Part shown: positions 1 to 361 of the stretch, piece by piece
How the letters are laid out: the number at the start of each line of letters is the position of its first letter
Position numbering within the stretch: the stretch's first letter is position 1
From: a virus
Taxonomy: Duplodnaviria > Heunggongvirae > Uroviricota > Caudoviricetes
Direction: 5' to 3' (one strand)
IMG/VR virus record: IMGVR_UViG_2600254997_000007
Length of the DNA stretch: 7,051 nt
Notes under the pieces: generated by a model
The model's input: only the letters and a program-made list of their open reading frames with translations
The model's database searches: none
Told to the model about the DNA's origin: nothing
Position numbers and translations under genes: made by a program

Positions 1-350
1 AGACCCGGGATAACCTCGAGCGCATGGTGGTTATCAAGGCGTTTATCGCGGTGCGGGTGCTGGGCCTGCGGCAGGGCGGTATCAGTGAAGAAACACAAAA
101 TGACAGCTGTGAGAAAATACTGACGCCGACAGAGTGGAAACTGCTGTGGGTTAAGCTGGAAGGAAAACCGCTTCCGTCACAGATGCCGACACTGAAATGG
201 GCCTGTCTGAAACTGGCGAAACTGGGGCGATGGCATGACAGCAAACGCACCGGTCGCCCCGGTTGGGTAGTCATGTGGGATGGCTGGTTCAGACTTCAGG
301 ATATGGTTGAGGGTTACCTGGTGATGAAGTCTCTTGATCAGGAGATCTGA
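1..350 (+). CDS. Transposase, C-terminal fragment (DDE transposase of the IS4 family, IS50/Tn5-like); 5' end lies outside the window.
   Basis: The reading frame is open from position 3 (TRDNLERMVVIKAF...) to the TGA at 348-350. The translation parallels the Tn5 transposase C-terminus as I recall it (DNLERMV..., SKRTG...W..W.GW..L), ending ...KSLDQEI. Divergent from IS50 itself by my estimate, roughly half of residues identical. Confidence 0.8.
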   Translation, partial: TRDNLERMVVIKAFIAVRVLGLRQGGISEETQNDSCEKILTPTEWKLLWVKLEGKPLPSQMPTLKWACLKLAKLGRWHDSKRTGRPGWVVMWDGWFRLQDMVEGYLVMKSLDQEI

Positions 351-361
351 TCAAGAGACAG
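343..361. repeat. Terminal inverted repeat of the IS (19 bp), containing two GATC Dam sites.
   Basis: Reverse complement of 343-361 is CTGTCTCTTGATCAGATCT. GATC sites lie at 344-347 and 349-352, with a third at 336-339 just inside. Confidence 0.7.

Follow-up and report, generated by a model that had tools for sequence, protein, structure and literature searches.

Tn5, with its insertion sequence IS50, is the best-studied cut-and-paste transposon and the basis of tagmentation. In Tn5, end positions 1-2 are needed for cleavage, and in the co-crystal structure positions 12-19 hold much of the N-terminal domain contacts. Within the IS4 family, members of the IS50 group have terminal inverted repeats that start with 5'-CT and make target duplications of 8-9 bp (PMC2266710). 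Regulation of the IS50 inside end (IE) by Dam is established (Yin, Krebs and Reznikoff 1988, cited in PMC3347997). IS50 has GATC sites at positions 10-13 and 15-18 of that end and a third at positions 21-24, and the stop codon of its transposase gene lies in the TGATCA of the end. When GATC sites in the transposase-binding end are methylated, transposase binding falls.

Stable hairpins at the 3' ends of mRNAs, such as REP sequences and terminator hairpins, are exonuclease barriers without a U-tract. Some insertion sequences also target palindromic DNA; IS1397 and ISKpn1, which belong to the IS3 family, insert in the center of GC-rich palindromic intergenic repeats. Moreover, a short palindrome can be what is left when a transposon is lost. 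In the Tn10 remnant of this kind, which forms between repeats located in the two IS10 arms of the composite transposon, the target duplication is retained. This "nearly precise excision," which Foster et al. reportedly described in 1981, is said to occur between short repeats, to be independent of transposase and to leave a short palindromic remnant of transposon-end sequences. Template-switch mutagenesis at quasi-palindromes is likewise said to have been described by Ripley in 1982 and by the Lovett laboratory. In work with reporter genes, templated multi-base changes bring an imperfect inverted repeat closer to perfection (PMC7202029).

Here, we analyze the end of an IS50-like element in a 7,051-nucleotide stretch of Caudoviricetes DNA (IMG/VR record IMGVR_UViG_2600254997_000007), referred to as the window. 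A preliminary description of this DNA had noted a palindrome with three Dam sites at the element terminus, and had offered an mRNA 3' hairpin or an extra control on end usage as its role; both are live candidates. The element, ISEc13, and its 19-bp end are already known. In the literature searched, we found no account of a subterminal inverted copy of the end, of its restriction to a clade, of fixed codons within it or of solo palindromes derived from it, and the review of the IS4 family (PMC2266710) mentions neither the inner copy nor ISEc13.

Results

The window opens in a copy of ISEc13

Over positions 1-361, the window is 100% identical to copies in Escherichia coli E2348/69 that are annotated "IS4-like element ISEc13 family transposase." That genome has about 30 ISEc13 copies, and ISEc13-related sequence is found in 2466 of 5426 complete E. 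coli genomes. A complete copy (L001:1312-2861) spans 1550 bp and encodes a transposase of 457 aa, which aligns with residues 3-453 of the IS50R transposase at 38.9% identity; ISEc13 and IS50 transposases are only 39-41% identical. The C-terminal fragment encoded in the window matches Pfam Dimer_Tnp_Tn5 (E = 3.3e-6; 27.8 bits versus a cut-off of 26.7). On the Pfam match and the full-length alignment, the protein classes as a Tn5-type DDE transposase.

The right boundary of the element falls at window position 361, and the matching boundary in the complete copy adjoins the target duplication. The left end, CTGTCTCTTATACACAAAT, is 17/19 identical to the IS50 outside end, and both ends (CTGTCTCTTATACAC... 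and CTGTCTCTTGATCAG...) start with 5'-CT. Target duplications of 8-10 bp surround six copies (L001, L007, L008, L044, L188 and L189); the window does not reach the left end of its own copy. By these matches, the window opens within ISEc13, of the IS50 group of the IS4 family, and the host gene is a prophage lom (Table 1). After lom, the tail genes J, I, K, L and M follow on the same strand, and the listed ORF 338..841 extends from lom into the IS up to the first stop. Direct duplications of 8-10 bp, mostly exact, flank full copies as well as two small deletion derivatives (L050, 173 bp; L058, 281 bp), and these insertions typically lie at the center of GC-rich hairpin repeats of the type CCCTCTCCC-loop-GGGAGAGGG. 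Both derivatives retain the right-end palindrome.

Table 1. Features at the right end of ISEc13 and its insertion site (window coordinates)
Feature	Position	Strand	Remarks
3' part of ISEc13 transposase gene	1..350	+	ORF 24..350; last residues ...EGYLVMKSLDQEI, then stop; full copy in L001
Inner arm, GTCTCTTGATCAG	329..341	+	Inverted copy of inside-end positions 3-15; codons (AA)G TCT CTT GAT CAG
GATC, inner arm	336..339	.	Only where the arm reaches position 13 (9/15 lineages)
Loop, GAGAT	342..346	+	Complementary to end positions 16-20; still inside the 19-bp repeat
19-bp right terminal inverted repeat (inside end, IE)	343..361	-	CTGTCTCTTGATCAGATCT from the tip; 19/19 identical to the IS50R right end in L006
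GATC, end positions 15-18	344..347	.	Also in IS50; absent in marine relatives; GCTC in Shigella remnant L009
Outer arm, CTGATCAAGAGAC	347..359	+	Inside-end positions 15-3
Transposase stop, TGA	348..350	+	In the outer arm; TGA of TGATCA, end positions 14-12
GATC, end positions 10-13	349..352	.	Also in IS50; universal in the clade
Interrupted lom gene, lambdoid prophage (insertion target)	362..841	-	Pfam Ail_Lom, E = 1.7e-95, profile positions 1-162 of 199

A stem-loop built from the terminal repeat and its inverted copy

At the right end of ISEc13, the terminal inverted repeat and its own inverted copy make up a stem-loop. The preliminary description had recognized the arms as a 12-bp palindrome, GTCTCTTGATCA at 329-340 and TGATCAAGAGAC at 348-359; these arms are real but one pair short, as G341:C347 makes a perfect stem of 13 bp around a 5-nt loop. 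The positions that it gave for the three GATC sites and for the transposase stop inside the outer arm, both read directly, are correct, as is its placing of the site at the terminus of an IS50-like element. The inner copy starts directly after the 19-bp repeat and lies within the last seven codons of the transposase gene, where it encodes the Ser-Leu-Asp-Gln of the tail ...MKSLDQEI.

This stem is the window's longest perfect short-range inverted repeat. A perfect 13-bp stem with a loop of 3-20 nt was present in 1 of 1000 mononucleotide shuffles and in 2 of 500 first-order Markov simulations of the window. When the transposase mRNA 3' end was folded by prediction, a check that the preliminary description had proposed, the RNA structure for 310-375 has a free energy of -31.2 kcal/mol (z = -5.1), with none of 200 shuffles as good, and single-stranded DNA of the same segment folds at -16.9 kcal/mol (z = -4.8). 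The 33-base hairpin is identical in all sampled ISEc13 copies, including those of E2348/69. In the window copy, positions 318-323 also pair with 365-370 in the lom flank and lengthen the stem; we treat this pairing as coincidence because it is missing in the complete copy L001.

No terminator-like site was found at 329-361 on either strand. An intrinsic (Rho-independent) terminator consists of a GC-rich hairpin and a U-run, and the bases following the stem here are AGCCACGCC on the + strand and TTCATCACC on the - strand. There was no promoter-like site at the element end, and a search of window positions 1-1000 against Rfam gave no match up to E = 1.

The inner copy marks one branch of the IS50 group

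Relatives were gathered by protein similarity, blind to the palindrome, through tblastn on plasmids and a profile-seeded scan of metagenome contigs (80 loci, 30-98% identity), and the 3' end of each relative was then read. Fifteen distinct lineages had transposases with 45% or more identity to that of ISEc13, and in every one the last codons contain the lineage's own end in inverted form. Positions 3-11 of the copy match the lineage's own end in at least 13 of the 15, positions 12-15 in 8-9, position 2 in six and position 1 in three. Inner position 1 lies 35 nt from the tip in 11/15 lineages, and the stop codon is in the equivalent place in 12/13 relatives. Several marine lineages have a stem of only 8-9 bp with a 13-nt loop. 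The C-terminal tails vary (SLDQEI, SLDH, SLESDL and SLEHEM), with S-L-(D/E) conserved in the clade. In a scan of one genome per species (see below), transposase-gene ends with the palindrome span Scandinavium, Pantoea, Klebsiella, Budvicia, Rahnella, Vibrio, Marinomonas and Legionella.

No inner copy was found in relatives at most 46% identical, IS50R included, though the tip TGATCAAGAGACAG is common to many of them. On this comparison, which the preliminary description had called for, the inner copy is a mark of one branch of the IS50 group, ISEc13/Vibrio, that IS50 itself lacks; what had been thought possibly element-specific belongs to a clade. The 19-bp inside end is the same in IS50R, whose last bases, however, read ...GCGCAGGGGATCAAGATCTGATCAAGAGACAG, and IS50 has the direct repeat GATCAAGA-TCT-GATCAAGA where ISEc13 has the inverted inner copy. 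The preliminary description was accurate in that IS50 lacks the extended palindrome, and the other ISEc13 copies do have it.

In contrast, the three Dam sites are not particular to ISEc13. The last 25 bp of IS50R also holds three GATC sites, of which those at end positions 10-13 and 15-18 are identical to the sites of ISEc13, and the third differs in place (positions 23-26 in ISEc13). Across the clade, only the site at positions 10-13 is universal. The end of the marine lineages reads ...GATCACAAGT, without the 15-18 site, and that site is mutated in the Shigella plasmid remnant L009. Since the loop and inner-arm sites are not conserved, Dam control cannot hold the palindrome in place. We rejected the Dam sites as a conserved feature of this end, given that IS50 also has three and that two of the three are not kept in the clade. 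By analogy, Dam regulation may well apply to the two sites common with IS50.

Nucleotide-level constraint on the inner copy

We aligned the codons of 13 lineages whose proteins are 47-81% identical in pairwise comparison; in 20 columns, an amino acid of at least four-fold degeneracy is invariant. Eighteen of these use 3-6 codons. The other two are the inner-arm Ser, which is TCT in 13/13 lineages, and the inner-arm Leu, which is CTT in 12/13; when the two lineages found via the palindrome pattern are left out, the counts are 11/11 and 10/11. Fixed codons at these residues, while other invariant residues use 3-6, place the constraint on nucleotides and not on protein. At the level of sequence comparison, the inner copy is thus shown to be constrained as nucleic acid.

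A classical covariation test is weak here, since the outer arm doubles as the element end, to which transposase binds, and is fixed by that role: 7 of 15 pairs never vary, and the observed score was reached by 12 of 500 shuffles. The sole two-sided change is at the position-15 pair, which is G:C in the enteric lineages and C:G in L007, L106 and L110. Stem mismatches in relatives are few and show no G-U bias on the sense strand. In a dead 124-nt remnant often found on E. coli plasmids (L190), one G of the inner arm is replaced by T, and two mismatches occur in a Salmonella remnant (L010). The change in L190 fits a constraint that acts in live elements only.

Solo 35-bp palindromes

Searches with the full element also returned 33-bp matches without a surrounding IS. 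In the trmL-lldD spacer of E. coli ATCC 8739, B strains and many others, the sequence is CTGTCTCTTGATCAG GAGAT CTGATCAAGAGACAG, a perfect 15 + 5 + 15 palindrome of 35 bp that runs CTG...CAG and whose left tip is CTG as opposed to AAG in the IS. This allele is present in 1188 of 5426 E. coli genomes. The K-12 spacer differs, with two inverted GC-rich hairpin units, and no full ISEc13 was found at trmL-lldD in any of the 5426 genomes with two chimeric queries.

A pattern scan of one genome per species gave 91 loci, of which 52 are transposase-gene ends with 21 distinct 3' contexts. Fourteen others are clear solos, with no transposase homology on either side; together with L055, at a contig edge, and the E. 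coli solo (L002), they make a total of 16. Solos in the scan came from Rahnella, Serratia, Citrobacter, Salmonella diarizonae, Escherichia sp. and metagenome-assembled genomes (MAGs). All 14 clear solos have CTG on both sides, whereas inner positions 1-3 read CTG in 0/21 full-length contexts (12 AAG, 4 ATG, 2 AAA and others). Three metagenome lineages (L112, L113 and L179) do carry CTG, but on shorter arms that end at positions 9-12; no full-length element has CTG on an inner arm of 11-15 bp.

None of the 16 solos has a target duplication, and the mean direct identity of their flanking 9-mers is 3.6 of 9. They occupy GC-rich hairpin repeats of the kind that full copies target, and most genomes have one solo at a fixed locus and not a dispersed family. 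A MITE would have the terminal repeats of its parent, a target duplication and dispersed copies; the solos have exact tips but no duplication. In four solos (L012, L053, L074 and L083), the flanks are perfect or near-perfect reverse complements up to 16 nt past the tips, and the flanks of the others are unrelated. In the E. coli solo, both flanks are the repeat half GGGAGAGGGTTAGGGTGAGGGG... that adjoins the inside end of the full copies L188 and L189, and neither is the left-end half. In the orthologous loci of Citrobacter and Salmonella (L055 and L085), the loop has opposite orientations. For the solos of Escherichia sp. MOD1-EC7003, a search for the empty site in E. coli gave no useful alignment of the flanks.

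Read from these end products, the solos fit a junction of two inside-end tips. The lack of duplications and the IE-type flanks argue against a mobile 35-bp unit and against simple slippage at GTCTCTT, which the left terminal repeat has in common with the inner arm; we rejected such slippage because it predicts a target duplication and an outside-end left flank, and both are absent. A fold-back model may apply to the four solos with palindromic flanks. For the E. coli solo, a pure fold-back of the right flank was rejected, as the sequence to its left is the first repeat unit native to that locus and not a reverse copy. Like the Tn10 remnant, the solos are short end-derived palindromes seen after loss of an element; they differ in having no duplication and in consisting of two copies of the inside end.

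Discussion

A candidate 3' stem-loop on the transposase mRNA

We tentatively favor, at somewhat less than even confidence, a reading in which the palindrome is a portable 3' stem-loop on the transposase mRNA. Transposase transcripts, having no internal terminator, would read out through the element end, where the arms would fold into a hairpin of 8-15 bp that is carried wherever the element lands, whatever the flank. This hairpin would block 3'-to-5' exonucleases, as REP and terminator hairpins do on host mRNAs, and so make the stability of the transposase mRNA independent of the insertion site. Compared with those hairpins, that of ISEc13 is unusual in that its 3' arm doubles as the transposase-binding end and holds the stop codon; its stabilizing role is a candidate one. 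Template switching between the arms could keep them alike, which would explain the swap of G:C to C:G at position 15. A further side effect at the DNA level concerns the 13-bp inner arm as a direct repeat of any inverted IE, be it on a second copy, the sister chromatid or the nascent strand: exchange or strand switching at such an end would excise the element, with a perfect 35-bp palindrome of two IE tips as the product. An intermediate of this route was looked for at trmL-lldD in E. coli and not found. That full-length elements never have the terminal CT on inner arms of 11-15 bp fits selection against a pseudo-end that is complete and cleavable. Support for the stem-loop comes from its presence in 15/15 lineages, the fixed codons, the 35-nt geometry, the RNA fold, the lack of any other 3' end signal and the decay of L190. 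The palindrome is identical on both strands and in DNA, and the sequence by itself therefore gives no means of telling a role in RNA from one in DNA. Several points speak against an mRNA stem-loop: covariation is weak, stem mismatches have no G-U bias, the 8-9 bp marine stems with their 13-nt loop would be a modest barrier to exonucleases, and IS50 manages without such a hairpin.

Alternative explanations

The structure might have no selected function at all. In that case, an ancestral fold-back into a dispensable tail would have created a quasi-palindrome that perpetuates itself, with template switching from the fixed outer arm overwriting the inner arm faster than point mutation erodes it. 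Quasi-palindromes are indeed mutational hotspots that template switching perfects, by an established mechanism in E. coli (PMC7202029); the only two-sided change, at position 15, is what one templated event would give; the tail of the transposase is variable; and the flipped solo loop of Citrobacter and Salmonella shows strand exchange between arms. On the other hand, the core is kept in 15/15 lineages at pairwise protein identities of 47-81%, which is hard to achieve without selection because a loss would be irreversible. Such a drive should also reach positions 1-2, yet CTG is absent from all full-length contexts, several lineages are stable with arms of 8-9 bp, and the dead remnant L190 has an inner-arm mismatch that was not corrected. 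We regard this explanation as unlikely, if still a serious competitor. A control of end usage at the DNA level, which seems to us rather improbable, would make the inner arm a putative partial, uncleavable transposase site in mirror orientation, abutting the 19-bp end. Transposase, or a host protein that binds palindromes, would there compete with binding at the true end, and methylation of the extra GATC sites might modulate this. The inner copy begins right after the 19-20 bp end, so that two bound proteins would overlap; moreover, the 35-nt spacing is widely kept, both deletion derivatives retain the palindrome, and Dam regulation of inside-end use is known in IS50 (Yin, Krebs and Reznikoff 1988, cited in PMC3347997). 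Matching of positions 1-2 is avoided in full-length elements and found in all solos, as if transposase acted on a complete copy. However, the core that is always copied covers positions 3-11 only, and positions 12-19, where much of the N-terminal domain contacts lie in Tn5, are not copied in many lineages. The inner-arm and loop GATC sites, as noted, are not conserved.

Two further explanations fare worse. That the 35-bp unit is a miniature transposon moved by transposase, with the IS palindrome as its source copy, is very unlikely: the exact CTG...CAG tips of the solos and their location in hairpin repeats like those targeted by full copies would suit it, but 0/16 solos have a duplication versus 8-10 bp at full copies and at both deletion derivatives, most genomes have a single solo at a fixed locus, and full-length donors are without the left-tip CT. 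By what is known of the Tn5 complex, a molecule of 35 bp is also too short to bring its two tips together in a single synaptic complex. A coincidence, in which the conserved peptide Ser-Leu-Asp is what matters and its complementarity to the end is accidental, is harder still to credit. The S-L-(D/E) peptide is conserved in the clade, as this view would have it, but its six-fold-degenerate Ser and Leu codons are fixed against 3-6 codons in 18 other invariant columns, shuffles of the window seldom yield a perfect 13-bp stem, and IS50 encodes a different tail. The codon fixation in particular disfavors a coding by-product.

A possible latent second end

Apart from the proposed mRNA stem-loop, and whatever its standing, the inner arm could be a latent second end, although we consider this doubtful. 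Restoration of its tip (AA to CT, which changes Lys to Leu), or an encounter with an inverted IE, would then destroy the element and leave a 35-bp palindrome, either by transposase cleavage at the pseudo-end or by strand exchange from arm to arm. Template-switch mutagenesis would account for the change from AA in the IS to CT in the solos as well as for the position-15 swap; it is not known as a force that maintains the structure of an IS end or generates IS scars.

Should this reading be true, the ISEc13 clade has a built-in route of self-deletion, and the solos in several enterobacterial genera are a previously unrecognized class of IS scar that lengthens host hairpins. The solos, which currently have no annotated feature, are a sequence signature of past ISEc13-type activity and would be a natural case of a short IS-borne palindrome driving chromosomal deletion and palindrome formation. 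The relatives of Tn5 reveal variation in end architecture around an identical 19-bp binding site, and a subterminal end copy that is held at the nucleotide level inside the transposase frame offers a simple handle on whether the end of the element itself tunes transposase output or inside-end use. Specialists on Tn5 would be truly surprised only if transposase proves to act on the pseudo-end or the hairpin to tune expression.

Target choice resembles that of another group of elements. IS1397 and ISKpn1 differ from ISEc13 in family, in the repeat family that they target and in having no self-complementary terminal end. In their preference for palindromic repeats they are nevertheless alike, as ISEc13-type copies lie in boxC-like hairpins with duplications of 8-10 bp.

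Solo copies of the right-end palindrome

At 16 loci we found unannotated, perfect 35-bp palindromes, each made up of two ISEc13-type inside-end tips and standing alone. None of the 16 is flanked by a target duplication. Their usual setting is GC-rich hairpin repeats. The E. coli example, between trmL and lldD, is present in 1188 of 5426 genomes. At one chromosomal site, the 5-nt loop of the solo reads ATCTC in Citrobacter (L055) and, in the opposite orientation, GAGAT in Salmonella enterica subsp. diarizonae (L085), which implies that an exchange between the arms inverted the loop. 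A palindrome with Vibrio-type arms (TCTCTTGATCAC ... GTGATCAAGAGA), likewise devoid of a transposase, occurs in four Photobacterium species (L018, L024, L042, and L052). These four appear to share one orthologous locus, where the palindrome may represent an ancient solo belonging to the marine sub-branch.

Features of ISEc13-type elements, their derivatives and their insertion sites (L-numbers denote sampled loci)
Feature	Location	Details
Left ends	L001:1312-1350; L007:295-345; L017:2704-2750	
Interrupted lom and tail genes	window 338-841 and 911-7040	- strand
Q-T-I-L codons	L007, L106, L108, L110-L116	about 45-60 nt upstream of tip
Insertions in hairpin repeats	L188:181-250 and 1801-1870; L189; L017/L025; L020/L090	L189 on reverse strand
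E. coli solo	L002:1499-1533	trmL-lldD spacer, E. coli ATCC 8739
Other solos	L012, L031, L035, L053, L055, L057, L061, L064, L072, L073, L074, L083, L085, L095, L096	
Orthologous solos with flipped 5-nt loop	L055:42-70 vs L085:1024-1052	
Non-autonomous deletion derivative	L050:6632-6804	173 bp, Vibrio sp. M260121
Non-autonomous deletion derivative	L058:177-457	281 bp, Rahnella perminowiae
Dead right-end remnant	L190:151-269	124 nt, 92% identical, E. coli plasmid pT28R-2
Tips ending GAGACTG	L102:4265-4293; L027:721-749	

Insertion sites and the interrupted lom gene

ISEc13-type elements frequently land midway inside GC-rich hairpin repeats that resemble boxC, with duplications of 8-10 bp. Two E. 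coli insertions (the full copies L188 and L189) have the same orientation, the inside end adjoining the GGGTTAGGGTGAGGGG half of the repeat. The window copy differs from these in that its target is a coding gene: the lom gene of a lambdoid prophage is broken about 35-40 codons ahead of its normal end, its frame continuing inside the IS as far as the stop codon at 338-340, and is followed on the same strand by tail genes J, I, K, L, and M. Here CTGGTG in the IS (318-323) pairs in exact register with CGCCAG in the lom flank (365-370), lengthening the stem beyond the 5x5 internal loop. An extension of this type was not seen in the complete copy L001, and the extension into lom is probably due to chance.

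Deletion derivatives, remnants and variant tips

Both non-autonomous deletion derivatives have two ends and target duplications, and both retain the right-end palindrome. The 124-nt right-end remnant is common among E. coli plasmids, many others carrying it besides pT28R-2; in this remnant, a G-to-T change disrupts the inner arm together with its GATC. Two relatives or remnants have a changed tip triplet, ending in GAGACTG rather than GAGACAG.

A possible second constraint, and the left end

In marine lineages, the codons CAA ACC ATC CTT a short way upstream of the inner arm are also nearly invariant at their synonymous sites, which hints that ATCCTTGA could be under a second nucleotide-level constraint. 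This stretch is similar to the end core TCTCTTGA. The ISEc13-type left end is nearer to the engineered Tn5 "mosaic end" than is the IS50 outside end (T at position 4). A hairpin comes directly after the left end, its 5' arm sharing positions 13-19 with the repeat. Among the relatives, those from Vibrio, Scandinavium, and Pantoea have a T-run at the end of the hairpin, which there looks like an inward-facing terminator against read-in transcription.
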